From the NCBI GenBank assembly GCA_963805915.1, contig CAWDWD010000018.1, positions 17,737-81,736 on the forward strand: 64,000 nt of DNA, given 5' to 3'. The notes below the pieces were generated by a model, which ran no database searches, was not told where the DNA came from, and was given only the letters and a program-made list of their open reading frames with translations. Of the stretch, positions 45,630 through 57,380 are shown in pieces. The position numbers were made by a program, and so were the translations under genes. The stretch comes from an uncultured Alphaproteobacteria bacterium. GTDB taxonomy: Bacteria; Pseudomonadota; Alphaproteobacteria; Rhodospirillales; Defluviicoccaceae. Positions within the stretch are counted from its first letter, which is position 1, and each line of letters starts with the position of its first letter.

Positions 45630-47156
45630 CTACAGCGCGAAATCCCGTTCGGCCTCAAAGCAGGAGCCGCCACGCCAAGGCTTGCTTTGCGTGCTGGCTC
45701 GCCCTTGCCAAGTCTGCAATGGCAAGCGAACTGATTCGCTCAGCAGACATCCGGCGACCGCATCCAGCCCGTCGTCTCGACACTTACCTTTTCCAGGTCG
45801 CCATTCGCGCATCTCTTGAACGAATGGGGTATCGAACACGCCCTCATGAACGGCAAGCCGGCCCGCGGCCAGAACAGCGTCAAATGCTTCGAGGATGCGG
45901 ATATCCTTGCTCGTCCTGGAGGTATGTTCCAGAACGGCGCAGTTCAGGCCGCTCCGGCGGAGTTGCTGGCGCAACAAGCCCGTCAAAAAGCGCCCTATTC
46001 CGTTGGTTTCAACGGTCACCGCCGGCAAATGCAATTCACGAACGATCGAAGCAACCTGTCGGCATAGTTGGGTCGCCTCGTCGACGTCATCCGCCAGCAG
46101 TGGATCGTGAGTGATATACTCTATTCGATGCAGCCAGTATGAGCCGGACTCATCCGTGAAAACGGCTGCGACGACGCTCGAGTCGCCCGTATCCGGCGAC
46201 CCGTAGGAGGGGTCCCACCAGCAAGACACAGATACCAGACGGGCGCCGCCAAGTGTCAGTGTCGCCGTTCTGTTGCTCTCACGGTACACAAGGCGATGAC
46301 CGTAGGAGCGAAGCCGCTCGGGATCGAGCCGGCTATCGGTTAGGGGCCTAGCCTTCAGCATCATTTGACTTTGGAACTTCGCCGGACCCGTGGCTTCCAG
46401 CAATTCCTGGATTTTATCTTTGGGAAATCGCTCGGGCCAGGCACTCTCGCCGCGTTCAGTCAATATAGGTAATTCGAGACGACTGTAAGCGCCCAAAAAC
46501 GGAGCCTCTTCTCTCGAACCTATATTATCTTGTCTACGATATATGCTGTGATAACAATGCGGTGTTCCAATATACAGCTTCATCCCATTCGGAGAAAGAA
46601 CGTACGCGGACTCTTGTAGGCGCTCGCGAAGCGCATTTCTTTTTTGCGCCGTATCCGAGTTGTTCGGGACTTCGACATCGTCGCAGATCAAGACGTCGGT
46701 TCGTAAACCGGTAATGTTGGCCGCAATGCCCTTCGCTAGTACCGATGGATCCCTTAGCTCGGCGCGCCGCCTGACGATAAATCGATCGGCGGCCCAAACT
46801 TGATGTCTAGCCGGCCGCAGTGGCGCGGTCAGCGGATGGCACTCGATCAATCTTCGCACGTTTCGAACCATCGTTTTTGCAAGTGAAAAGTCCCCCGCCA
46901 TAACGAGGATTCGCAAGTCCGGGTCCTGGAGCAAGAGCCAGGCGCAAAACAACCCGACCACCGACGACTTACCCGAGTTGCGAAAAGCTAGAAGAACGAG
47001 TTCGCGGTCGCCTGCGATTAAGCGGTCGGACAACCACCGCGCCATCTTCAGGTGGATGTCTGGCGTCGTCTGATCCTGGAAATGATTCCAAATCCATACG
47101 AATTCCGGGAAAGTTACGGTTCTGGCCGTGGTGAGGCCTTGCAGCGGTACCGGCAT
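45630..47156 (-). CDS. terL: terminase large subunit, T7 gp19-like
   Basis: LVLLAFRNSGKSSVVGLFCAWLLLQDPDLRILVMAG and TDVLICDDVEVPNNSDT align with my memory of T7 gp19 ([21 protein letters not shown]...LKILIVSAS; ADIIIADDVEIPSNSAT). Confidence 0.88.
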   Translation of the reverse strand: MPVPLQGLTTARTVTFPEFVWIWNHFQDQTTPDIHLKMARWLSDRLIAGDRELVLLAFRNSGKSSVVGLFCAWLLLQDPDLRILVMAGDFSLAKTMVRNVRRLIECHPLTAPLRPARHQVWAADRFIVRRRAELRDPSVLAKGIAANITGLRTDVLICDDVEVPNNSDTAQKRNALRERLQESAYVLSPNGMKLYIGTPHCYHSIYRRQDNIGSREEAPFLGAYSRLELPILTERGESAWPERFPKDKIQELLEATGPAKFQSQMMLKARPLTDSRLDPERLRSYGHRLVYRESNRTATLTLGGARLVSVSCWWDPSYGSPDTGDSSVVAAVFTDESGSYWLHRIEYITHDPLLADDVDEATQLCRQVASIVRELHLPAVTVETNGIGRFLTGLLRQQLRRSGLNCAVLEHTSRTSKDIRILEAFDAVLAAGRLAVHEGVFDTPFVQEMREWRPGKGKCRDDGLDAVAGCLLSESVRLPLQTWQGRASTQSKPWRGGSCFEAERDFAL

Positions 47157-47161
47157 AAGGA

Positions 47162-47548
47162 TTATTGAAGAGAAAGTCCGGCGTCGCGAGCCCGCAGAAT
47201 GACGAGGTTCGACAAGAATGCCGAGAATGCGGGGCAGTCAACAAGCAGCTCTTCGACCCAGGCTTCACCGAGAAGCGGTTCCTCGGCAGCAGCGCTTAAT
47301 GCGGCTGGCGTCAAAAGCGGGCTATAGCAACGAGCCTTCCTAGCTCTTTGGCGCTCAATCTCCACTTGCTTGAGGGCCTCAAGGTCAACTTTATGCTGTA
47401 TAGCTATCGCAGTATCGCTAATGCTGCGCATTTTCTCGACCTGCGAGCAGCTGGCTAGGAGCACCATAAGCGTCAAGCTAACCGCCGTTGACATGATTCG
47501 TGTCGTTGCATCACCTTCAGTTTTGTTTAAGTAACCGCCCACCTGCAT
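47162..47548 (-). CDS. phage lipoprotein in the T7 gene 18.5/18.7 position (spanin-like candidate)
   Basis: Lipobox LMVLLASC, a charged helical middle and a hydrophobic C-terminal stretch (AFSAFLSNLVIL). AGGAGGTAAATG joins it to the upstream ORF. Confidence 0.5.
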   Translation of the reverse strand: MQVGGYLNKTEGDATTRIMSTAVSLTLMVLLASCSQVEKMRSISDTAIAIQHKVDLEALKQVEIERQRARKARCYSPLLTPAALSAAAEEPLLGEAWVEELLVDCPAFSAFLSNLVILRARDAGLSLQ

Positions 47549-47836
47549 TTACCTCCTACTTAAATCAGCTCTCGCTTCGTCAATAAGGGTCTCAACATCA
47601 ATATCTTGTTGTGTCAAATCTGCGCCAACACCTTGCGGAAAACGTTCGGCAAATCGATGCAATAGGATCATGTGGCTTAGCGCGGCGCGGCAGGCGGATT
47701 GCGCGCCCACGAAACCGTTGCAATCTTCCGGAAAAGCTTGCTCGACGCGCTTCATGTACTCTTTGAAGGCCATAAGCATTAAGAGAGACAAGCGATTTCC
47801 TATATAAACTGCAACCTTCTCATTGTTTTCAGCCAT
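47549..47836 (-). CDS. hypothetical phage protein in the T7 gene 18 position (small terminase candidate by position only)
   Basis: 95-aa ORF immediately upstream of the lipoprotein and TerL. I see no recognisable motif. Confidence 0.45.
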   Translation of the reverse strand: MAENNEKVAVYIGNRLSLLMLMAFKEYMKRVEQAFPEDCNGFVGAQSACRAALSHMILLHRFAERFPQGVGADLTQQDIDVETLIDEARADLSRR

Positions 47837-47877
47837 TTGTGATTATCCCGGAACACCACTTCAGATTAGACTTTCCA

Positions 47878-48405
47878 TCATAAACTGATAACGATGCTGT
47901 CGATAAATTTTATTATAAGTGGCGCCATTATTGCTATGAAGAGCGTGCCGAGTATGATGTATAATTTCCGCTCTGAGGCGAGTCTTGATATTTCTACTTG
48001 GCGTGCTATTTCTATCTTGCTACGGTCAATTTGTTCTTCATCTCTATGCTTGCGGAGGTTGTCAATAAATGTCGCGCCTTCCGCTCGAATTTCCTGCGCG
48101 ATATCCCTTTTTAGCTGACCTATGTCTTTTACAAGGTTGTTTTCCAATAGAGCCAAGTCTGCCGACAAACGAACGTGCCTGACTTCGAAATCTTTGTTCC
48201 GGATTGCAAGCTCGTCGGTTAGTTTCGAGTAATGCAATTTCAGCTGTTCAATTTCTACGGCATGGTGCCTGGTTGAGCTCGTTAGGCCGTTCCCAACTTT
48301 GGAAGATAGTGTCACAAACGCAACATGCAGCTCATCCATCTTGAGGAATACTCGATCCTGTAATTTCTCAAGTCGCTCGGTTCTCTTTTCCAGATCTAAA
48401 GACAT
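47878..48405 (-). CDS. coiled-coil protein with C-terminal TM anchor
   Basis: 175 aa. Heptad-like charged repeats, then YIILGTLFIAIMAPLIIKFIDSIVISL at the extreme C-terminus. It sits in the most AT-rich stretch of the window. Confidence 0.5.
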   Translation of the reverse strand: MSLDLEKRTERLEKLQDRVFLKMDELHVAFVTLSSKVGNGLTSSTRHHAVEIEQLKLHYSKLTDELAIRNKDFEVRHVRLSADLALLENNLVKDIGQLKRDIAQEIRAEGATFIDNLRKHRDEEQIDRSKIEIARQVEISRLASERKLYIILGTLFIAIMAPLIIKFIDSIVISL

Positions 48406-48432
48406 GAAGATATGTTCCGTGGGGAGCTTGCA

Positions 48433-48642
48433 CTAGCGCTTTGCAAGGCGCTTGTCCGCCACCGCGCGACCAAGCATGCCAACCGCAGCGCCAGCAACAG
48501 CCAGGAGCTGGAACACGGCGTCCGTCATGCTGTCCGGCTCGAGGTATAAAACATCAAACTCTCGAAGAGATATAACGATTACAGTGACGAGAGGGCCGAT
48601 GAAACCCTTTGACAGGTACCAAGGTTTAGAGCCATTCATCAT
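48433..48642 (-). CDS. holin-like small membrane protein
   Basis: 69 aa with two hydrophobic segments (GFIGPLVTVIVISL; AVFQLLAVAGAAVGMLG) and a basic C-terminal tail (DKRLAKR). It occupies a position like T7 gene 17.5. Confidence 0.5.
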   Translation of the reverse strand: MMNGSKPWYLSKGFIGPLVTVIVISLREFDVLYLEPDSMTDAVFQLLAVAGAAVGMLGRAVADKRLAKR

Positions 48643-48695
48643 AAAGTTCCTATTTGAGCATATCGCATTCTATATTCAGTACGAACCTCCGCTTA

Positions 48696-49142
48696 TTATT
48701 CTAATATATTGGCTTGGCGACCTGCTTGTTGGCCTATATTAAAGGCTGCCTGAGTACGATAGTCAGAGAGGTCCAGGAGGCTCTTCCGCCGCTGAGCCAC
48801 CAGTTGCTGTTGCACCTGGTCGATGCGGGACGCGTTGAGTTTTTGATTCTCCGCGGCGCCCAAAGTCGCTTCTTTGGCCAGGCCGGCCAGGACGGCTCCC
48901 GCGGAACCACCAGAGCCCAATCCCTGAGCAGCAAAACTCGCCTTCTGAGCGGCTAAGGCCTTGCGCAGTTTCTCACGACGAGATCTATCGTCAGCGGCTT
49001 CAACTAGTCTCATCTGGGCGATTCTTGCCTGCGCATCCGCTTTGGCGGCGTCGTGCGCGGCATCCGCCTGACGCTCTTGCTGCGCCGCGGTCATTCCCAT
49101 CTGAAGGGCGCTCAGCGCCGCGGCCGGGACAAAACCACCCAT
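48696..49142 (-). CDS. Ala/Gln-rich phage protein (internal virion protein candidate)
   Basis: 148-aa low-complexity helical protein directly after tail tubular B, where T7 has genes 13/14. AGGAGA lies 8 nt upstream of the ATG. Confidence 0.5.
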   Translation of the reverse strand: MGGFVPAAALSALQMGMTAAQQERQADAAHDAAKADAQARIAQMRLVEAADDRSRREKLRKALAAQKASFAAQGLGSGGSAGAVLAGLAKEATLGAAENQKLNASRIDQVQQQLVAQRRKSLLDLSDYRTQAAFNIGQQAGRQANILE

Positions 49143-49242
49143 GCGTGGGGTCTCCTATTAATTACTCGAGAATTTAAACGAGCCCTGTGTGCGGCGCACT
49201 GAAAGTAAAAGACGGCGCGCGCAAGGTAAAATGGTTAAGTTG

Positions 49243-51142
49243 TTAGTTGGCGCTGATTTCCGTCGCCACAGACAGGAGTGTAAAGGGCAGAGGCGACGCC
49301 TGAGCAATTCTCCAAAGGCTTTTGCTTGTGTCGCTCCGCCATCCATAACCCCGCACGGTTCGATCACCCGTGAAGAGGTGAGGCCTCTGATCAAGGACAT
49401 CGTCGCCCATTTTTCGGAACGGCACCTCCTTGAATCCGCGCCCCAGGTCCAGATTTAATGCCGCGGTTTCCAGGAAGCGGAAGGTCACCATGACCGGCCG
49501 AACACGGCTGCCTTGGCCTCCTGCCGCGGCGCCTCCGGAGGCTGGCGGTAGAGGCTCTACCACGTGGCTGAATTCAAGGCCGACAAGGACAGTGAACGCC
49601 GGTTCGCCGATTTCGACACTGGCGTATTCAACGACGGCCTTCGGCCGAACAATGCCGTCCGCAACGATAGCCACGACCTGGCCATCCAGGTGTCCAAGAC
49701 CGGCCCACGTCGATTGAGCCGAGGGTGAAGTGCCGATATAACCGCAGTCGACACCCAGTCGGCGGTCAAAGGCCTCGACAAGAAGTCCACCTATTCGCTC
49801 TACCATGACGAAAGTTTCGTCGCCGACCGTAGCGACGGAGCGGAAGGCACCGTTCGTGTCCTGAACCGTCCACGCACTGACCTGTTCATCACGATAAATC
49901 GTCAGGGTCGCCAAGGTCCCATTTGCCATCACGGCATGCAGGAGGCGCGAAGACTTGTCGATGTCCATATCAATCGGTTGATCTATAAGATGATCGGAAA
50001 GTAGAGCCAAGTCGGCCGCTTGGTAGGCAGCCTCGGTATCAGTAAACAGAAACTCTCGGATCTGGTTACCAGCTCTCGCCACAAACACGGTCGCGCCATC
50101 GACGTCCTTTGGCGGCACTGTCCGCGACACCGCCGAGCCCACGCGCGTCTGGCGGTGTAGCTGAATATTGACCGGAGTTCAGGGGCTCGCCGCTGACCAT
50201 CCACTCCGCGCCCGAGGTGAAGACCTGCAGGTGTCGTCCGGAAAAAACCGCTCGTATGGCGTTGACTTGATCGGACAATATGGCGAATTCGATGGACTCG
50301 TCGTTCAGTCCGTCGCCAAGATCGAAGTTGAATAACTTGGCGGTTTTTGATAGCCAAAGCCGATTGGGCAGATCCCGGGAACCGCCGACGACCAACCGGT
50401 CTTGGTGAAAACATACCGCTGTCGGCCAACCCCTCGCTGCCGAAAAGGCCGCCTCGGTCCAGTCCTTAGTCGCCTGAGTGGAGACAAGGGTTTCCTTGAC
50501 ATCAACGCGGGCCTGCGTCGGTGAAACAACCGCGGCGACCGCAACCTCTCGACCGGCGATGCGGAACCGCACTCCGATATGGTCCGGCAGGAACACGGGT
50601 TCAGTGGCCGTAACGATGATGCTGCCGCTGGTGCCGCTGGCCTGTAGCGTCGTTTGTTCGCCGGCAAACTTGTAGTGCGGTACGAGAAGCCGTCCGTCTC
50701 TATCCGAGAAAGTCCACTCGGAGACGAACCATTCAGCGTCAGTTTGGCGGGTTATAATCCGGGGAGGCACTTCCGGATGTACGACAAGGAGGGTGTCGGG
50801 GCTTTGCGTCCAATTGATCTGGTCCAACTGAGCGACCGACCATGGTGCTGCAAAATCGGCGACTCTGATCCCGTTGCGATACACATCAACGGCATGATCC
50901 GAGAACAGCAGAAGGTAGGCCTTTTCAGTGCTAAATTCGAACGCGACAAGCCGACCTGGTCCCCGCGCCGTATCGACAAAGCGCAGGCCAGGCCGGCGGG
51001 AAAGGCCTCCAGTCGGATGAATGAAGACGTTGCGTAACTTTGCCGCGCCGTTCTCGAAGGCCCGCAGGTCAGAGCGGCCGAGTAGCCGTGGCGAGAGCTC
51101 GCCCGCGGAAAAGTTCGTTTTCGCGGTTCTGATTCTCGCCAT
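49243..51142 (-). pseudogene. tail tubular protein B (T7 gp12-like), reading frame broken once near 50178
   Basis: ORF 50066..51142 carries RLWLSKTAKLFNF (T7: ILSRTAKYFNF). ORF 49243..50142 continues the protein. Deleting one A gives ...WMVSGEPLTPVNIQL... (T7: ...LTASGTLTSKSVEL...). Confidence 0.8.
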
Positions 51143-51744
51143 CAGTAACGACTTTCCACCAGACAGTAGTCCTGTATGCTTTGCGGCGTATCTTCCTGCG
51201 CGTCGATGAGTTTAGCGCCGCGTAGCTCGGCATCCGCGAGCTTATGCAAGCTCTCCCATCGAGACGTGCTGTCGGTTAACGGGATGCAAAACTCGGCCGC
51301 GAGATGCGTGATCAGCACTTTGCTGAAGAAAGGCGGGTCGTCGGCTTCGTTGGCCCGAAACACATAAGTCAGCACCACTTCGCCGGCGTTCGTATGTAAC
51401 CGTCCGTCGTACAGACGGTAGATCAGGCCAGCACCGCTCCCGCCAGCTCCCGCCGACAGAACCCGCAGGCAATCCGCTGGGAGCGCGAATGTGTTGACAA
51501 GGTCACTGTCGTCATTGACCGAAAGAGCAGCCAGCTTCTTCCGCGTCGTTGCGAAATTCCACGGATGTGCAGACAGCAGGCCGTCACGAACATAATCATA
51601 GAGATTTGCCGCGACGTCGGCTTCGGCCGTGCCGTCGTCAAGCGAACTGATGGTGCCTGCCCCAATTTTGAGAAGTGCCCTGGAGCATAGATCAATGCGG
51701 CTTAACGACACGAGGTCATCTCCCTTGTAATGATTCAAATGCAC
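51142..51744 (-). CDS. tail tubular protein A (T7 gp11-like)
   Basis: 200 aa. IDLCSRALLKIGAGTISSLDDGTAEADVAANLYDYVRDGLLSAHPWNFA parallels T7 gp11 [46 protein letters not shown]. Confidence 0.8.
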   Translation of the reverse strand: MHLNHYKGDDLVSLSRIDLCSRALLKIGAGTISSLDDGTAEADVAANLYDYVRDGLLSAHPWNFATTRKKLAALSVNDDSDLVNTFALPADCLRVLSAGAGGSGAGLIYRLYDGRLHTNAGEVVLTYVFRANEADDPPFFSKVLITHLAAEFCIPLTDSTSRWESLHKLADAELRGAKLIDAQEDTPQSIQDYCLVESRY

Positions 51745-51794
51745 GGGCGTGGGTACAACCGACTCTGCAGGCGAAGAAGTAGGTGCGCTCTACG

Positions 51795-52064
51795 TCAGTC
51801 CGAATTACTGGCGCCGACCGCGACCAAATCGGCCACGTCCACGCTGCCCGCGCCGGCGTTGCTGACCAGGAAAATTCCCGCCTGTGCGGAACCCGCGGTA
51901 TCAGTATTCGCCAGGATCATGTCGCCGGCGCGCACCACGTCGCTCGCGTCATTAAAATACCCTTGAGTATCGACCTCGATAGCGACGTCATTTGTTTTAT
52001 AGTGCCAAAGGGTGAAGCCATTGGCGTAAGCAAGAACACTAAGATCTTTTGAAGAATAGGACAT
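51795..52064 (-). CDS. small phage structural-region protein (possible capsid decoration protein)
   Basis: 89-aa ORF between the capsid and tail tubular A genes. No motif is recognised. Confidence 0.5.
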   Translation of the reverse strand: MSYSSKDLSVLAYANGFTLWHYKTNDVAIEVDTQGYFNDASDVVRAGDMILANTDTAGSAQAGIFLVSNAGAGSVDVADLVAVGASNSD

Positions 52065-52079
52065 TCTGTACGCTCCGGA

Positions 52080-52898
52080 TCAAGCTTCGCGGCAGGGCAT
52101 TGTCACGACGCCGGAGGCGTCGATCAGGCAGGCGCCCTGACTCATCATGTTGTTGACGAAGTGAGCGGCGCGATCGCCATGCCAGGTGATATCAGTGCTG
52201 ACGTCGGAGCCGACGGCGTGGGCAAGAGCGGTCTTGTGATACCAGAAGCAGGATCGGACGTCGGCAGCGATTGGGAGCGCCGAATGGGGAAGCCAGAGGG
52301 TTCCGAGCCATCGTTTGGCCTGGGTTCCCTTCCATGGGAGTTCGTCGTCACCAATGTAGTCGGCATTGCCGAACTCAGGGAGATTGAGAAGATCGCTCCA
52401 CTGCTTCCAACCAACGACGGCGTAGCGCTGGCCATCGTCCGGTACGTCGACCGCGCCAAGCGTCTCGAAAGCCGCTAGGACCTTCTCCTTGGTCAAACCG
52501 TCGGTATCGGCGCCGACGGTGACGCTGGCTTTCGCGAGCTGCTCGATGATCAGTTCGTCTGTCTTGCGGCCGAGTGCATAGGCACCGGCCTTGGCGACAA
52601 CCTGCTGCTCATTGATATTCGTCTTGAGCTCATCGAGCTTGTCGACCCAGTCGCCAGCGTAGAAGTCGTACAGCATGCACTCGATCGGTGTGTGGTCGAC
52701 GTTCATGACCGGAACCTTGCCGTGCCGCGCCTTGGTGCTGGCCGTCCCCTTGCCGATCCTCTGGAACGTCGTCGATGCCCCGGTTACGTTCTCCTTGGTA
52801 CGAACGGTCGGGCGAAGCTTAGATCCCATCTGCTGGTAATTGATGTGTACCAGTGCTTCAAAGTTTTTGATGAATGATTGCGGGACCGTAACAGACAA
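52080..52898 (-). CDS. major capsid protein (T7 gene 10 position)
   Basis: 272 aa. TTG start with AGGAGA 7 nt upstream. It follows the scaffold gene. The overall pattern is reminiscent of small HK97-fold capsid proteins. Confidence 0.7.
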   Translation of the reverse strand: MSVTVPQSFIKNFEALVHINYQQMGSKLRPTVRTKENVTGASTTFQRIGKGTASTKARHGKVPVMNVDHTPIECMLYDFYAGDWVDKLDELKTNINEQQVVAKAGAYALGRKTDELIIEQLAKASVTVGADTDGLTKEKVLAAFETLGAVDVPDDGQRYAVVGWKQWSDLLNLPEFGNADYIGDDELPWKGTQAKRWLGTLWLPHSALPIAADVRSCFWYHKTALAHAVGSDVSTDITWHGDRAAHFVNNMMSQGACLIDASGVVTMPCREA

Positions 52899-52952
52899 TA
52901 TCGTGTCTCCTAAATTGCACTCATTTGTGAATCACGATCGGCTTAAATAAAC

Positions 52953-52982
52953 GGGGCGTCGGCTACCGGTAGCCGACGCCCC
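52953..52982 (-). terminator. perfect 14-bp-stem hairpin between scaffold and capsid genes
   Basis: GGGGCGTCGGCTAC-cg-GTAGCCGACGCCCC. On the minus strand it is followed by GTTTATTTAA. Confidence 0.55.
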
Positions 52983-53031
52983 GAGGAGGAGCGGCGACCG
53001 ACGCGCTCACTCCTTGTCTCAATAAGGCGTT

Positions 53032-53766
53032 CTATTCGTCATAAATGCGCCGGAAACCTTCGCTGACTCGTCCAATGAAAGCTGCGTCCTGCTCACGCCA
53101 ATACTTTGGATCGCGCATCATCTGCTTCAGGTTAGCCTCGCTCAAAGGCTCATGAGCGGCTGAGCCGCCTCCCATCAACCTCGGTTCCTCGGCCGCCATC
53201 ATCTTGCGCATCGCCAGGACGCCCTCGCGCGAAGTCGCGAGTGCATCGAACACCGAAGCGGGAAGGTTGCCTCGGCCCCAAACGGCGATCTGGCGCGCGG
53301 CTTCCCGCCACTGATCCTCTCCGCCGAACTCCTGCCGGAGCTGGGCGATCTCCTTTTCGGCCTCGAACTCCGAAGCCACTTCGGCGACCATCGGCATCAA
53401 CTGCTTGGCGGCCAAGGTGTAGACCAGTTGAACCTGATCGCGGGTGAAGCCAGCCGCATGAAGCTGTTTGTTGATCTCGGGGTCGCTCTCGAAGAGCTCG
53501 TGTTCGACACTGATGTCGTAGTCGTCCGGGCCCGCGGGCACGCCCGAGCGCATTTCCCCCGCCGCACGCTGCAGTTCGAGGTAGGACGCGATCAGATCGT
53601 CGGTTCGGACGCATCCAGCGCTCTCGTCCCAGAATTGCTCCGGAACAGACTCCGGCCGCGACGCCGGATCAGCGTCGCCGGGAATGGTCCCTGCGAGGAC
53701 CAGTGGTTCGGAATCTGCTTCCGCCGAGACGCTCTCGTTATAGTCTCGCGGTGTGTTCTCGCTCAT
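53032..53766 (-). CDS. capsid scaffolding/assembly protein (T7 gene 9 position)
   Basis: 244 aa from the ATG at 53766 (GGAGAT 5 nt upstream). It is acidic and helical (MSENTPRDYNESVSAEADSEP...), between the portal and capsid genes. Confidence 0.65.
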   Translation of the reverse strand: MSENTPRDYNESVSAEADSEPLVLAGTIPGDADPASRPESVPEQFWDESAGCVRTDDLIASYLELQRAAGEMRSGVPAGPDDYDISVEHELFESDPEINKQLHAAGFTRDQVQLVYTLAAKQLMPMVAEVASEFEAEKEIAQLRQEFGGEDQWREAARQIAVWGRGNLPASVFDALATSREGVLAMRKMMAAEEPRLMGGGSAAHEPLSEANLKQMMRDPKYWREQDAAFIGRVSEGFRRIYDE

Positions 53767-53782
53767 GTGGATCTCCGGCGCG

Positions 53783-54076
53783 CTATTGGGACTGACTTGT
53801 TGCGTCGTTGCCGCGTCTGACCAAGCTTGCGATCCGGGCGAGAAGCTGTCTCTGGCCCTCGACATGACGCAACATCGCTTCCGATACCTCTGGCCCGAAT
53901 GTGCGTCCAAAGGCGATCGCTCGCAGATGTGCGAAGACCCGCCGACCGTCGGGGGTCGAGAAGCATCGAGCAAAGCTCGCCGCCACCTCGGTCCGCTCCA
54001 CGCGACCAATATCCTGGTCTATTGGGCCCCCAAGATCCGGACCAAATCCGGGCCATTCTTCATCCGTCGACGGCAT
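53783..54076 (-). CDS. small phage protein overlapping the portal stop
   Basis: About 97 aa (MPSTDEEWPGFGPDLGG...RRVFAHLRAIAFGRTFGPEVS...). GGAG lies 6 nt upstream of this ATG. Confidence 0.5.
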   Translation of the reverse strand: MPSTDEEWPGFGPDLGGPIDQDIGRVERTEVAASFARCFSTPDGRRVFAHLRAIAFGRTFGPEVSEAMLRHVEGQRQLLARIASLVRRGNDATSQSQ

Positions 54077-55619
54077 TGTCATCTCCGAGCTGCCTGTCAA
54101 TCTCCATAAGTCCGCCTAATCCGTTTAAAGCAGGGAGCCCGACGCCGAGCGGCATTGCCGGGGCGTCGCGGACAAGCTCGCCCGGCACGCCCAGCGCTTG
54201 CGCCAGCCAGCGCGTCGCGGCGCTCTGGTCTACCGCCGCCATGGCTTCCGCGCCGAGCGAGCGCACGGCATCGAGCCACAGCAAAGTGTTCTGAACACCT
54301 TGTTGCGCCTGGTAGCGGGCCTGCGGTGATCGGTACTCGATCGTGATCGTTCGGTTATCAAGCGGCAGATCGGGTATTTCGCCGCGGCGCGCGAGAATTG
54401 TCCGCGCGCGAACAATCAGCGGCGTCAACAACTCCGATTGGAGGCGGCCGTACGTCGCGCCTAAGAGGCGCGCCATTTCCGCCGCTCGCTCAAGAACTTC
54501 CGTTGCGGTCATACGCGGGCCGCTGACTTGGCCGAGCTGATCGACGAGCAAGGCCCTGCGGATGCGCGCGCGAACCTGATCGAGAACCAGTTCCGAAACA
54601 TCAAAGCGGCCAGGCGCTTCGAGGGGCGTCAGGCCGGCCGAACCGACCGCCTTCGGTATGATGGTTCCTGGAACCAGCTTGATGTTGGCCGGATTGATCA
54701 CGCCGTCGTCGTCGACCTGCCAGATGCCCGTCACGGCGATCGATGCGTTCTTCAGGACAAGCTCGACAACCTTATTCGCCGTCTTGATGTCCGGCAGCGC
54801 CTTCATGATCGGCGATCGGCCATAGCTTTCCCCAGGCGCCTTTGACCAACGAAAATTGATGAAAGGCGACGTCGAGAAGCGTCCTTCGCCAAGAACGAGC
54901 GGCTCTCGCGCACTGTTCGCATCGCTTTCGGCGACGGCAAGGTATGCGTACCCTTGGCCGTCTGGAACAACCGCTTCGATGACCGCTATGCTTGCCTCGT
55001 CATTATTTGGCGAGCCGACGAACCGTCCCAGGCCGTCGCCTCGCGGAAATCGCGCCACGACTTGGGCCGGCGTCAGGCGAGCGCGCCGGAACGTGGTGTC
55101 GAGGCGACCGGATGGCCCCTCCTCCAGCACGACCTGGGACATCGGCACGGCAGTAAAACGAAAGGCCGAGGCTTCCCACGTCCCCGCCTCCTCGAACATC
55201 AAGCAAGCGGTGCCAGCCGTGACCAGATCGAGGTAGCATTGGTGCGTCTCGACAACAAAGTTGGAACGATCGAAGTTCGACTGGACGACACGTGTCATGC
55301 GCTCTAGATCCGGCGCCAGCAATTGGCGCGTGGCGTCGTCCGCGTCCGGACCGACGCAGAAGCCGAACCAGGATGACCACGGCGGATTGAGCTGCGCCAT
55401 CAAGCTGGCCGCCAACTGATCGACAGCGTCCTGGGCCGTCGCATCAAACAACTTTTCGGTCTTTTTCTCCCCCGGCTGGGCTGATCGGATCACGCCGCCT
55501 CGCTGGGGAAGGGCATAGTCGTAACACTCCTGCCAGTGTGCCTCCCACGTTGTCCTGCGTTCGCGGGCCCGCGCGTAGCGCTGGACGACGTCGTTCGGGT
55601 TAAGCCGAGTCATGATCAT
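54060..55619 (-). CDS. portal / head-to-tail connector protein (T7 gp8-like)
   Basis: KAPGESYGRSPIMKALPDIKTANKV and MTATEVLERAAE...LQSELLTPLIVRA parallel T7 gp8 LDGESYGRSYIEEYLGDLRSLENLQ and VTAEEIRYVASE...LSQELQLPLVRVL. Confidence 0.88.
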   Translation of the reverse strand: MIMTRLNPNDVVQRYARARERRTTWEAHWQECYDYALPQRGGVIRSAQPGEKKTEKLFDATAQDAVDQLAASLMAQLNPPWSSWFGFCVGPDADDATRQLLAPDLERMTRVVQSNFDRSNFVVETHQCYLDLVTAGTACLMFEEAGTWEASAFRFTAVPMSQVVLEEGPSGRLDTTFRRARLTPAQVVARFPRGDGLGRFVGSPNNDEASIAVIEAVVPDGQGYAYLAVAESDANSAREPLVLGEGRFSTSPFINFRWSKAPGESYGRSPIMKALPDIKTANKVVELVLKNASIAVTGIWQVDDDGVINPANIKLVPGTIIPKAVGSAGLTPLEAPGRFDVSELVLDQVRARIRRALLVDQLGQVSGPRMTATEVLERAAEMARLLGATYGRLQSELLTPLIVRARTILARRGEIPDLPLDNRTITIEYRSPQARYQAQQGVQNTLLWLDAVRSLGAEAMAAVDQSAATRWLAQALGVPGELVRDAPAMPLGVGLPALNGLGGLMEIDRQLGDDNAVDG

Positions 55620-55800
55620 CCTTCGATTAGCGATTTCCGCCGAGGCGCCTCATAGGCGCGCAAAAAGCAGCGATCCACCGCATGGGTGCGTCACATCCGA
55701 TCGGAGCGGCTATTGTTCAGAAGTCGACGCAATGGCAGGATTTTAAGCCACATTGGGGTAGTGCTGGATACACGAACCCTGGTCGACGAGGAGAACTATA

Positions 55801-56256
55801 CTAGGTCATCAGACCTATGTCAAGGTTTTTAGTCTTATCCCTAAGCAGGTAGCTGTAGAGCTGCCATGGCGTCCGGATGCGTCTAGCGTGAATGCCAAGC
55901 ACGCGCTTTACGGCTTCGACACATGTAACCGGAGCCAGTGGTGCTATCTTTTCCGGCGCTGCTTGGACGATTGTTGCCACCGCCCTCACCCCCTGGCTCT
56001 CGTACCATTCGGAAAGCTGGACCGCGGTCACTCCGCAAACGAGGTTTATAGTCGTGCGATGCGAGAGCGGGTCGAGAATGACCCAACCGCCTGCCAAGCC
56101 GACCGCGACGAAACAATGGCGGAAGCCCGCTCGCAGGAACCGCAAGCATTTCAACTGAGTCGATCCGGCGAAGAGCACCAGCGCCGGCAGATCCTGCGGA
56201 GGTTGATGCGGCGCCGGCTGCCGCCCGCGCGGTCCGGCGGAGGCGCCGCCGTTCAT
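55801..56256 (-). CDS. hypothetical protein, second gene of the module (possible permuted papain-like hydrolase)
   Basis: 151 aa. A His-then-Cys arrangement (FRHCFVAVG...GWVILDP ... PVTCVEAVKRVLG) is suggestive only. It is ATGA-coupled to the upstream ORF. Confidence 0.5.
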   Translation of the reverse strand: MNGGASAGPRGRQPAPHQPPQDLPALVLFAGSTQLKCLRFLRAGFRHCFVAVGLAGGWVILDPLSHRTTINLVCGVTAVQLSEWYESQGVRAVATIVQAAPEKIAPLAPVTCVEAVKRVLGIHARRIRTPWQLYSYLLRDKTKNLDIGLMT

Positions 56257-56618
56257 TCAACAATGCCCTTCTCGCGAAGCGGGGTGGATAGCCGGTCGAT
56301 CGCTTCCTCCCAGAATTTGGCCGCGCGAGCCTGTTCGTCGCAGCGCGGGTCGGGCGTCTTCTGCAACAGCCCGTATTGGCCCAAGATACGGACGTGCGCC
56401 GGTCCGATCGTGCCGCTGCGCAGGAGCCTGTCGGCGGCGCGATAAACATCATCGGGGTCGCAAGGCCGCCCCGTTGAACCGGCGCAGGCCTCGATCCTGG
56501 CGCCTTCCCTGCGCACTTGCTGACAGCGGACAAACCAGAACCACGCAGCCTCGGCGCTTTCGAAAGCGGTTACGGGCTGGTCGGACATCGTTTTCGGGAT
56601 ATAGCGTTGACGAAGCAT
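56253..56618 (-). CDS. hypothetical protein, first gene of the module
   Basis: 121 aa. GGGGGAG lies 7 nt upstream of the ATG. It contains an AAWFWFVRCQ motif and I recognise no family. Confidence 0.55.
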   Translation of the reverse strand: MLRQRYIPKTMSDQPVTAFESAEAAWFWFVRCQQVRREGARIEACAGSTGRPCDPDDVYRAADRLLRSGTIGPAHVRILGQYGLLQKTPDPRCDEQARAAKFWEEAIDRLSTPLREKGIVE

Positions 56619-56636
56619 GGCGACGTTCTCCCCCTA

Positions 56637-56651
56637 GAACGTTAACAGAAC
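56637..56651 (-). promoter_or_regulatory. alphaproteobacterial-type SOS (LexA) box GAAC-N7-GAAC
   Basis: GAACgttaacaGAAC (GTTC-N7-GTTC on the coding strand). It lies between the predicted -10 element and the RBS of the first module gene. Confidence 0.55.
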
Positions 56652-56659
56652 ATTCGCCC

Positions 56660-56687
56660 ATCATATAGGATTTTTGCCCTTCGTCAA
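56660..56687 (-). promoter_or_regulatory. sigma70-like promoter of the phage-like operon
   Basis: The minus strand reads TTGACG (56687-56682), a 16-nt spacer, then TATGAT (56665-56660). Confidence 0.5.
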
Positions 56688-56747
56688 AGGGTCATATAGA
56701 AATATGTTCCTAGTGCAAGCCGTGCTTGCTTGTAAGACGATGTTCCC

Positions 56748-57380
56748 ATGCTGCAGCACGCGGAAATTTGGCGGGCTATTGATCTTCTCGCCAACCGGCG
56801 AGGTATGTCCCCTTCGGGGCTTGCGAAGCGCGCCGGCCTTGATCCAACCACCTTCAACAAAAGCAAAAGAATAACCAAGGATGGAAAGTTTCGCTGGCCG
56901 AGCACCGAGAGCATTTCGAAGATCTTGCACGCAAGCGGCGCGACGCTTGGCGAGTTCATGTCACTCGTGGATGAAGGCATAAGTTCGACCGTTTACCAGA
57001 AACTGCCGTTAATCGGTTTTGCTCAGGCTGGTAACGAGGGATACTTTGATGATGCCGGCTATCCGGCCGGGTCGGGGTGGGACGAAATCCTTTTTCCGGA
57101 TTCCAACGATCCGCATGCCTACGCCATTGAAATCAGCGGCGACAGCATGGAGCCGCTCTATCGTGACGGTGACGTCGTTATCGTTTCGCCGCAAGCCAAC
57201 CTCCGGCGTGGCGATCGGGTGATCCTTAAGACCCGCGACGGCGAGGTCCTGGCAAAGCTCCTGCGTCGGCGCACGGCTCATAAAATTGAGCTCCACTCAC
57301 TCAATCCGGCGCACGAGGATCGCTCCATCTCGGTGGAGAACGTCGAGTGGATTGCCCGCATCACCTGGGCCAGCCAGTGA
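56748..57380 (+). CDS. HTH (XRE/CI-type) + S24 peptidase autocleavable repressor
   Basis: N-terminal HTH (MSPSGLAKRAGLDPTTFNKSK). C-terminal S24 domain with catalytic-type Ser (EISGDSMEP) and Lys (RDGEVLAKLL). Confidence 0.85.
   Translation: MLQHAEIWRAIDLLANRRGMSPSGLAKRAGLDPTTFNKSKRITKDGKFRWPSTESISKILHASGATLGEFMSLVDEGISSTVYQKLPLIGFAQAGNEGYFDDAGYPAGSGWDEILFPDSNDPHAYAIEISGDSMEPLYRDGDVVIVSPQANLRRGDRVILKTRDGEVLAKLLRRRTAHKIELHSLNPAHEDRSISVENVEWIARITWASQ

Follow-up and report, generated by a model that had tools for sequence, protein, structure and literature searches.

Organization of the divergent control region

The window analysed here is a stretch of 64,000 nucleotides (contig CAWDWD010000018.1 of assembly GCA_963805915.1, positions 17,737 to 81,736, forward strand) from an uncultured alphaproteobacterium of the family Defluviicoccaceae, order Rhodospirillales. 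Its minus strand carries a cluster of T7-like late phage genes that is headed by a gene for a 121-aa protein, and a gene for a repressor of the S24 type diverges from this leading gene on the plus strand. Between the ATG codons of these two genes, 56618 (minus strand) and 56748 (plus strand), there is a gap of 129 bp. From the elements in this gap and from their conservation in related genomes, we consider it likely that the 129-bp region acts as a two-repressor DNA-damage switch for the T7-like cluster, the two repressors being host LexA and the adjacent S24 protein.

Along the minus strand, the region reads TTGACG, 16 nt, TATGAT, 8 nt (gggcgaat), GTTCtgttaacGTTC, 2 nt, GGGGGAG, 9 nt and then the ATG of the 121-aa gene. 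The first two elements form the predicted promoter P1 (56660-56687, minus strand), with the -35 TTGACG at 56687-56682, a 16-nt spacer and the -10 TATGAT at 56665-56660. P1 was a 10/12 match in the promoter scan, which returned 2 promoter-like sites in the 600 bp scanned against 0.3 expected. No variation was observed in TTGAC and TA..AT of P1 when the sequences of the same genus were aligned, and the TTGAC was found in 54 of the 63 loci with an adjacent S24 gene. Position 56653 (minus strand), which lies 7 nt past the -10 and is an A in every sequence of the genus alignment, is the predicted transcription start of P1.

The element GTTCtgttaacGTTC (56651-56637 on the minus strand, which is the gene strand; GAACGTTAACAGAAC when 56637-56651 is read on the plus strand) is a direct repeat of the form GTTC-N7-GTTC, or GAAC-N7-GAAC, and is read here as a LexA operator (SOS box) that would cover about +3 to +17 of P1. 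It starts 8 nt past the predicted -10 and overlaps the polymerase-binding site expected for the predicted P1. In the initial annotation of this region, the box was described as following the -10 immediately, which overlooks the eight bases that intervene. All the elements listed in that annotation were nevertheless recovered at their coordinates by inspection of the sequence, by the promoter scan and by the repeat finder. Downstream of the box, the ribosome-binding site (RBS) GGGGGAG of the 121-aa gene is located at 56628-56634 (minus strand), and its GGGGGA block is invariant in the genus.

On the side of the repressor gene, the start codon is adjoined by a conserved block, GGGAACAT(T/C)GTC (56739-56747, running on to 56736), which was the best conserved of the region in k-mer counts and alignments (42-52 of 64 loci). 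No Shine-Dalgarno sequence is present at the repressor gene start, and T(G/A)TA(A/T)G sits just 5' of the block. Taken together with the block at the start codon, these two features suggest a repressor mRNA that is leaderless or near-leaderless, like that of lambda cI from PRM. The block itself is possibly an autoregulatory site or the start of such a leaderless mRNA. The repeat finder further returned ATGTTCC twice, at 56704-56710 and at 56740-56746.

Two other candidates in the region were rejected. A hairpin at the RBS (ACGTTCT/AGAACGT) had a folding energy no better than that of shuffled sequences (z = 0.5), and a plus-strand TTAACA-18-TAGGAT, placed inside the box by the promoter scan, was dismissed as a chance hit because it relies on the box spacer, which is not conserved.

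The box is conserved at a fixed distance from P1

Of the 401 genomes that were sampled from the order, 226 have a homologue of the 121-aa protein, almost always as a single copy. The arrangement in which the repressor gene diverges from the genes for the 121-aa protein, the 151-aa protein and the portal was kept in 63 of 80 loci. Upstream of the 121-aa gene and in its orientation, an exact GTTC-N7-GTTC was present in 30 of the 63 repressor-adjacent loci and in 0 of the 17 loci without an adjacent repressor. The 30 boxes are uniform in orientation and are made of 28 distinct sequences and spacers, with the common flanks aATGTTC ... TTT GTTC(c/t). All five of the other loci from the same genus have the box, L104 of Magnetospirillum aberrantis SpK is a further example of a locus with the box at P1, and aatGTTC....t.tGTTC persists in the consensus drawn by majority from 61 aligned regions.

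To describe the position of the box, we used 31 sequences, namely the 30 box-bearing loci and this window. In 24 of them, the start of the box was 34-36 nt downstream of the first T of the -35 (range over the set 25-37), whereas its distance to the ATG varied from 15 to 81 nt, and we therefore regard the box as tied to the promoter and not to the RBS or the open reading frame (ORF). Its placement had been said to block initiation or elongation. A block of initiation is in keeping with the comparison, in that the box is conserved and keeps a set position relative to the promoter, at about +3 to +17 of the predicted start. When the six same-genus sequences were aligned, 58 of the 129 intergenic columns were invariant, and these fell into recognisable blocks: GGGAA.AT.GTC.TAC, GCACTAGGAA.AT, TTGAC, TCCTATA..AT, the A 7 nt after the -10, GTTC, GTTC and GGGGGA. 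Two operator-like blocks, the -35, the -10, both half-sites and the RBS can be recognised among them. Within the box, this alignment shows no variation at any of the 8 half-site bases and variation at each of the 7 spacer columns; with 45% of columns invariant, a crude probability for such a pattern in 15 specified columns is about 3e-5.

The bare motif is a common one, which would fit a functionless chance occurrence. The window contains 3 copies of GAAC-N7-GAAC where 2.19 would be expected, which is not significant (a count of 3 was reached in 39 of 100 shuffles). In the genome (3.5 Mb, 23 contigs, 65% GC) there are 125 copies, and the N7 spacing was not enriched there in comparison with other spacings that are not codon-phased (N6, N9, N10 and N12). 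A modest enrichment was obtained for intergenic boxes with AT-rich spacers (20 versus 3-11), the gene calls behind the genome-wide counts being those of a crude GC3-based caller. What raises the box at P1 above chance is that its position recurs in orthologous loci. In a positional window of 8 nt, about 0.01 boxes would be expected over the 63 loci and 30 were seen, with the related genomes being non-independent samples; likewise, the related loci (579 kb) contained 66 boxes, of which 46 were located at the two promoters of the cluster. The same position in 30 orthologous loci with 28 spacers and a fixed -35 distance, half-sites that stay invariant among variable columns, and the placement of the box at the second promoter, P2, by another lineage (see below) already contradict an origin by chance, which we regard as extremely improbable.

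The box matches the LexA operators of the lineage

The published alphaproteobacterial LexA site is GTTCN7GTTC/GAACN7GAAC (e.g. PMC6473078). In the genome under study, a perfect GAACCAAACTAGAAC lies about 160 nt 5' of its own lexA (contig C23, start 162993), together with a second site with one mismatch, and GAACATAACAAGAAC lies 26 nt ahead of the start of imuA on contig C7. The latter gene was assigned by NF033429 at 3e-23 and is followed by a Y-family imuB. In 29 of 30 lexA loci, from many families of the order, GAAC(C/T)AAA(C/G)TAGAAC was found upstream of lexA, and on the strength of this motif conservation GTTC-N7-GTTC is taken to be the LexA operator of this lineage, in agreement with the initial annotation. 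The box at P1, including its flanks (a)TGTTC...GTTC(c/t) and its T-rich spacer, is like the lexA and imuA operators of the genome and of the order.

Binding by a protein other than LexA was considered as well. The direct repeat could be a site of the S24 repressor or of another regulator of 11-bp-phased repeats, and its likeness to an SOS box would then be coincidence or mimicry. Such a binder would fit the restriction of the P1 box to loci with the S24 gene beside it (30/63 versus 0/17), and the GGAACAT/ATGTTCC in the blocks near the repressor gene does resemble a half-site of the box. The agreement of motif, flanks and T-rich spacer with the lexA and imuA operators, however, argues for LexA. 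Moreover, the S24 protein probably has a helix-turn-helix (HTH) of the Cro/CI type and not the winged helix of LexA, its gene is also present in 33 loci that have no box, and loci of the Thalassospira type without an adjacent S24 gene still have a box at P2. We therefore think it very unlikely that the repeat belongs to a regulator other than LexA.

Perfect boxes with T- or A-rich spacers were also found elsewhere in this genome, at C22:31255, 86 nt before the gene of a class II ribonucleotide reductase, and at C22:98338, 67 nt before mraZ. By their motifs, these two genes are possible further LexA targets.

The S24 repressor and its candidate operators

The divergent gene (56748-57380, plus strand) encodes a CI/PrtR-like repressor of 210 aa with a probable N-terminal HTH and a Peptidase_S24 domain, as judged from Pfam and PHROG matches. 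PF00717 was matched at E 8.7e-25 over residues 87-205, and phrog_4, 'transcriptional repressor', at 1e-30. The match of the N-terminus to HTH_26 was weak (22.0 bits at a cut-off of 22, E 2e-4, residues 12-76) in a region that is highly conserved, and no match at 1e-3 was obtained among PDB sequences. A94-G95, S133 (in GDSM) and K170 were invariant in 70 of 70 repressor homologues. We take A94-G95 to be the cleavage site and S133/K170 to be the Ser/Lys dyad, by their motifs and by likeness to LexA and lambda CI. The description of the adjacent repressor as an autocleavable S24 type is upheld by these residues, and the protein would probably be cleaved on RecA activation. LexA is the only other S24 protein of the genome.

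Two candidate operators, each one mismatch away from TAGG-N8-CCTA, were recognised in the control region. O_P1, AAGGGCAAAAATCCTA on the gene strand (56666-56681), lies in the P1 spacer and abuts the -10, and its flanking AGG...CCT is retained by related loci. O_3 (56697-56712; gene strand, TAGGAACATATTTCTA) is 31 bp from O_P1 and overlaps both a possible -35 of the repressor gene's promoter and the block gCACTAGGAAcat, which is among the most conserved of the intergenic region. The LexA box and the candidate operator O_P1 both fall within the expected polymerase footprint of P1. Two copies of TCATATAG (56661-56668 and 56692-56699) had been reported here earlier, each as overlapping a candidate -10 of one of the two divergent promoters. 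Both copies are present, the upstream one not being conserved even in the genus. Rather than two -10 boxes, we see in them the right arms of the two 16-bp palindromes, plus TATGA. The CCCTT-cgtca-AAGGG hairpin of the same report (56677-56691) is likewise present and is not conserved even within the genus.

A perfect TAGG-N8-CCTA was found at only 4 sites in the 3.5-Mb genome, and one of them is in the spacer of P2. When up to one mismatch was allowed, the 18-kb element had sites at 55802 (P2), 56666 and 56697 and one intragenic site. As such sites are rare and are placed at P1 and P2 of the element, the palindromes are likely operators of the S24 repressor. This assignment is weakened by the spacing of the palindromes, which is not uniform (N7 in some families), and by the arms of the P2 palindrome, TAGGTC/GACCTA, which also occur in about 30 scattered copies of a 17-bp palindrome.

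The latter sequence, TAGGTCA-N3-TGACCTA, has all of its roughly 30 genome copies in intergenic positions, where they often form tandem pairs (22 bp apart) and a third GGGTCA is close by (for example C6:3349/3371, C7:112489/112511, C10:146317/146339 and C23:165872/165894). The related loci (898 kb) contain no copy. The palindrome could be an element like the repetitive extragenic palindromes (REP-like) or consist of sites of another regulator.

A second predicted promoter ahead of the portal gene

The second promoter, P2, is TTGACA-17-TATAGT (55795-55823, minus strand); it overlaps the end of the 151-aa gene and lies 175 nt before the portal start. With 11/12 in the promoter scan, it scored stronger than P1. 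Its spacer contains a perfect 16-bp palindrome, TAGGTCTGATGACCTA (55817-55802), the inner arm bases of which covary within the genus (TC/GA, CC/GG, TT/AA). A P2-like TTGAC promoter was present in 48 of 58 related loci, and in many of these loci palindromes like TAGG-N8-CCTA overlap the P2 spacer or -10. No LexA box was found at P2 of this genome, and therefore LexA would directly gate P1 alone here. The double control that had been suggested for the particle operon would consequently hold for P1 and would not extend to P2, the promoter ahead of the portal gene.

A different placement was observed in 16 loci of the Thalassospira type. These have no box at P1, and an identical GTTCTTGATTTGTTC is found before the portal gene instead, where it overlaps the -35 of TTGATT-17-TATAAG. 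This sequence is carried by L057, L072, L077, L084, L088, L095, L099-L101, L106, L108, L110 and L112, about 900-1000 nt after the start of the 121-aa gene. Because the box of the Thalassospira-type loci is at P2 and not at P1, LexA control, as read from the motif, is kept across families but at different promoters.

About 45 nt further on, the Thalassospira-type loci also have a GC-rich intrinsic terminator with a stem of 10-12 bp, and this layout, which is like lambda PR'-tR', suggests antitermination by analogy. Across 59 sequences (the 58 related loci and this window), a terminator followed P2 in 28 and was strong in about half of these 28. Stems of 10-12 bp were found in Thalassospira and a few others; the present genus has either a weak terminator at this place or none.

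These terminators bear on a cascade as an alternative to two cleavable repressors. LexA would be the sole damage sensor, the 121-aa protein, the 151-aa protein or both would serve as antirepressor, antiterminator or activator of P2, and the S24 repressor would stay uncleaved in vivo. A terminator after P2 would call for an antiterminator, P2 is indeed a separate promoter, the LexA-gated promoter heads small conserved uncharacterised proteins and not structural ones, and LexA-controlled antirepressors are documented (PMC3121763). On the other hand, the terminator is weak or missing in this very genus, a palindrome of the S24 type is found at P1 itself, neither of the small proteins matches a regulator by fold or family, and the invariance of the S24 cleavage residues in 70 homologues argues that cleavage is used. 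We consider such a cascade unlikely, and retain the two-repressor switch as the preferred reading.

The T7-like cluster and its two leading genes

The first gene after P1 encodes the 121-aa protein, modelled as a four-helix protein (56253-56618, minus strand), and the second the 151-aa protein (55801-56256, minus strand). They are followed by the T7-like late genes from portal to large terminase (45630-55619, minus strand), which were identified by Pfam and PHROG matches. On the minus strand, the order is 121-aa, 151-aa, portal, scaffold, major capsid, tail tube A, tail tube B, small ORFs and large terminase, and two malectin-domain proteins come after the large terminase. The GC content falls from about 65% to 50-60% across 41-57.5 kb. 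The tail tube B homologue was found in two overlapping ORFs (49243-51142) that cover positions 1-205 and 398-710 of phrog_376, which reflects either a frameshift or an assembly error. The synteny of the cluster with xseA holds within the genus only, and we accordingly claim no fixed chromosomal site.

The 121-aa and 151-aa proteins had no match in Pfam, PHROG, NCBIfam or PADLOC. Their AlphaFold2 models (pLDDT 83.5 and 79.1, respectively) gave no Foldseek match at E < 0.3 in PDB or BFVD. In the 151-aa protein, H47, C48, C112, E114, K117 and R118 are invariant, and its model showed a resemblance, non-significant in Foldseek, to cysteine peptidases (UCH family, 3kw0). The 151-aa protein may thus be no regulator but a permuted papain-like enzyme. 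Our literature searches returned no relevant description of a domesticated T7-like cluster in Rhodospirillales.

A proposed two-repressor DNA-damage switch

The elements themselves, their conservation, the fixed position of the box and its identity with the lexA and imuA operators of the lineage were seen directly in the sequences; from these we infer which protein pairs with which site, where transcription starts, that the repressor is cleaved and that the cluster is inducible. In the switch that we propose, host LexA on the direct repeat at about +3 to +17 would block initiation at P1, and the S24 repressor would occupy the palindromes at 56666-56681 (in the P1 spacer), at 56697-56712 and in P2. 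Upon DNA damage, activated RecA would bring about self-cleavage of LexA and probably of the S24 repressor too. With both locks open, P1 would fire and supply the 121-aa and 151-aa proteins, plus any read-through. P2 would drive the genes from portal to terminase and, in this genome, would be held by a single lock, mainly the S24 repressor; the double lock would be confined to P1, where LexA adds the second one. The overall outcome would be that DNA damage probably switches the cluster on.

Several observations weigh against this proposal. About half of the orthologous control regions are without the box, and it is therefore dispensable. The N7 spacing, as mentioned above, is not enriched genome-wide. 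The tail tube B homologue in two ORFs means that the cluster may be partly decayed and that the switch may control a defective element. Furthermore, no box at up to one mismatch was found in the regions upstream of recA, the divergent uvrA-ssb and dinB of this genome, so that, among the core SOS genes, only lexA and imuA are under LexA control by motif. Confirmation of the SOS box had been sought upstream of recA, lexA, uvrA and imuA, and was obtained for lexA and imuA and not for recA and uvrA.

The SOS regulon is therefore small here, and by the same motif evidence the LexA regulon of this genus looks reduced. When the recA upstream region of this genome (C22:161100-161460) was compared with loci L143-L172, a GAAC-N7-GTAC at about -110 of recA was seen in most other genera of the family and was absent in this genus. 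The GAAT-N7-GAAT that this genome has was rejected, as it is not conserved.

If the switch works as proposed, the T7-like cluster of Rhodospirillales would be silent until DNA damage and would then be expressed. Mitomycin C or UV would be the condition under which particles could be seen, be they gene transfer agents, bacteriocin-like killers or relics. With the box at a fixed phase on one promoter in some families, on another in Thalassospira, or absent in others, these loci would also offer a natural experiment in regulatory evolution. A further-reaching possibility, which we put forward tentatively and with more doubt than confidence, is that an undescribed, host-kept T7-like (podovirus-derived) machine exists across Rhodospirillales, on which LexA control has come to act independently at either promoter and in which the 121-aa and 151-aa proteins are new regulators (antirepressor or antiterminator) that license P2, the promoter with a strong terminator behind it in many lineages.

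Comparison with known systems

The closest arrangement for comparison is CTXphi of Vibrio cholerae, whose promoter PrstA was reportedly described by Quinones, Kimsey and Waldor in 2005 as being under LexA plus the phage repressor RstR. That study is cited in PMC4439123. In CTXphi, a host LexA site is combined with operators of the element's own repressor at a single promoter within a divergent region, and the candidate operators here would make for a like combination at P1. PrstA opens only upon SOS induction, and the same logic is proposed here. The two systems differ in that RstR is not known to be a self-cleaving S24 protein, whereas the second repressor here looks RecA-cleavable, and in that the LexA site here is the alphaproteobacterial direct repeat, lying on the predicted start point. 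CTXphi is, besides, a filamentous phage, while the present locus consists of T7-like late genes whose inheritance is widespread within an order.

The R- and F-type pyocins of Pseudomonas aeruginosa are controlled by PrtR and PrtN, and PrtR is a CI-like HTH/S24 repressor that is cleaved with RecA. There, as is proposed here, a chromosomal CI-like HTH/S24 repressor silences a domesticated phage-derived cluster until damage occurs. PrtR, in contrast, acts on the activator gene prtN, at the promoter of which no LexA box is known to be involved; in the present locus LexA would act directly as the second lock, and nothing like the activator PrtN was recognised.

LexA-controlled antirepressors are known from the Gifsy prophages and from coliphage 186, with Tum (PMC3121763). 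They share with our locus a LexA box right before small phage genes, by which induction is linked to SOS. Their repressor, unlike the one here, which keeps the cleavage residues, is uncleavable and is inactivated by the LexA-gated product.

Domesticated particle genes with a link to LexA exist in the alphaproteobacteria themselves. The gene transfer agent (GTA) clusters of the RcGTA type are siphovirus-like, and to our knowledge no divergent S24 repressor is involved in them. Links of LexA to these clusters have been described in Rhodobacter capsulatus and Dinoroseobacter shibae (PMC6473078). In R. capsulatus, a LexA site is found at the promoter of cckA, which is not part of the GTA cluster, and the role of LexA is for this reason thought to be at least partly indirect (PMC6473078). 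The feature shared with the present locus is the alphaproteobacterial GTTC/GAAC LexA motif, predicted at the genes of a domesticated phage-like particle. Considered by analogy, the control logic proposed for the T7-like cluster matches what is already known from PrstA of CTXphi, from PrtR of the pyocins and from the LexA-gated antirepressors.

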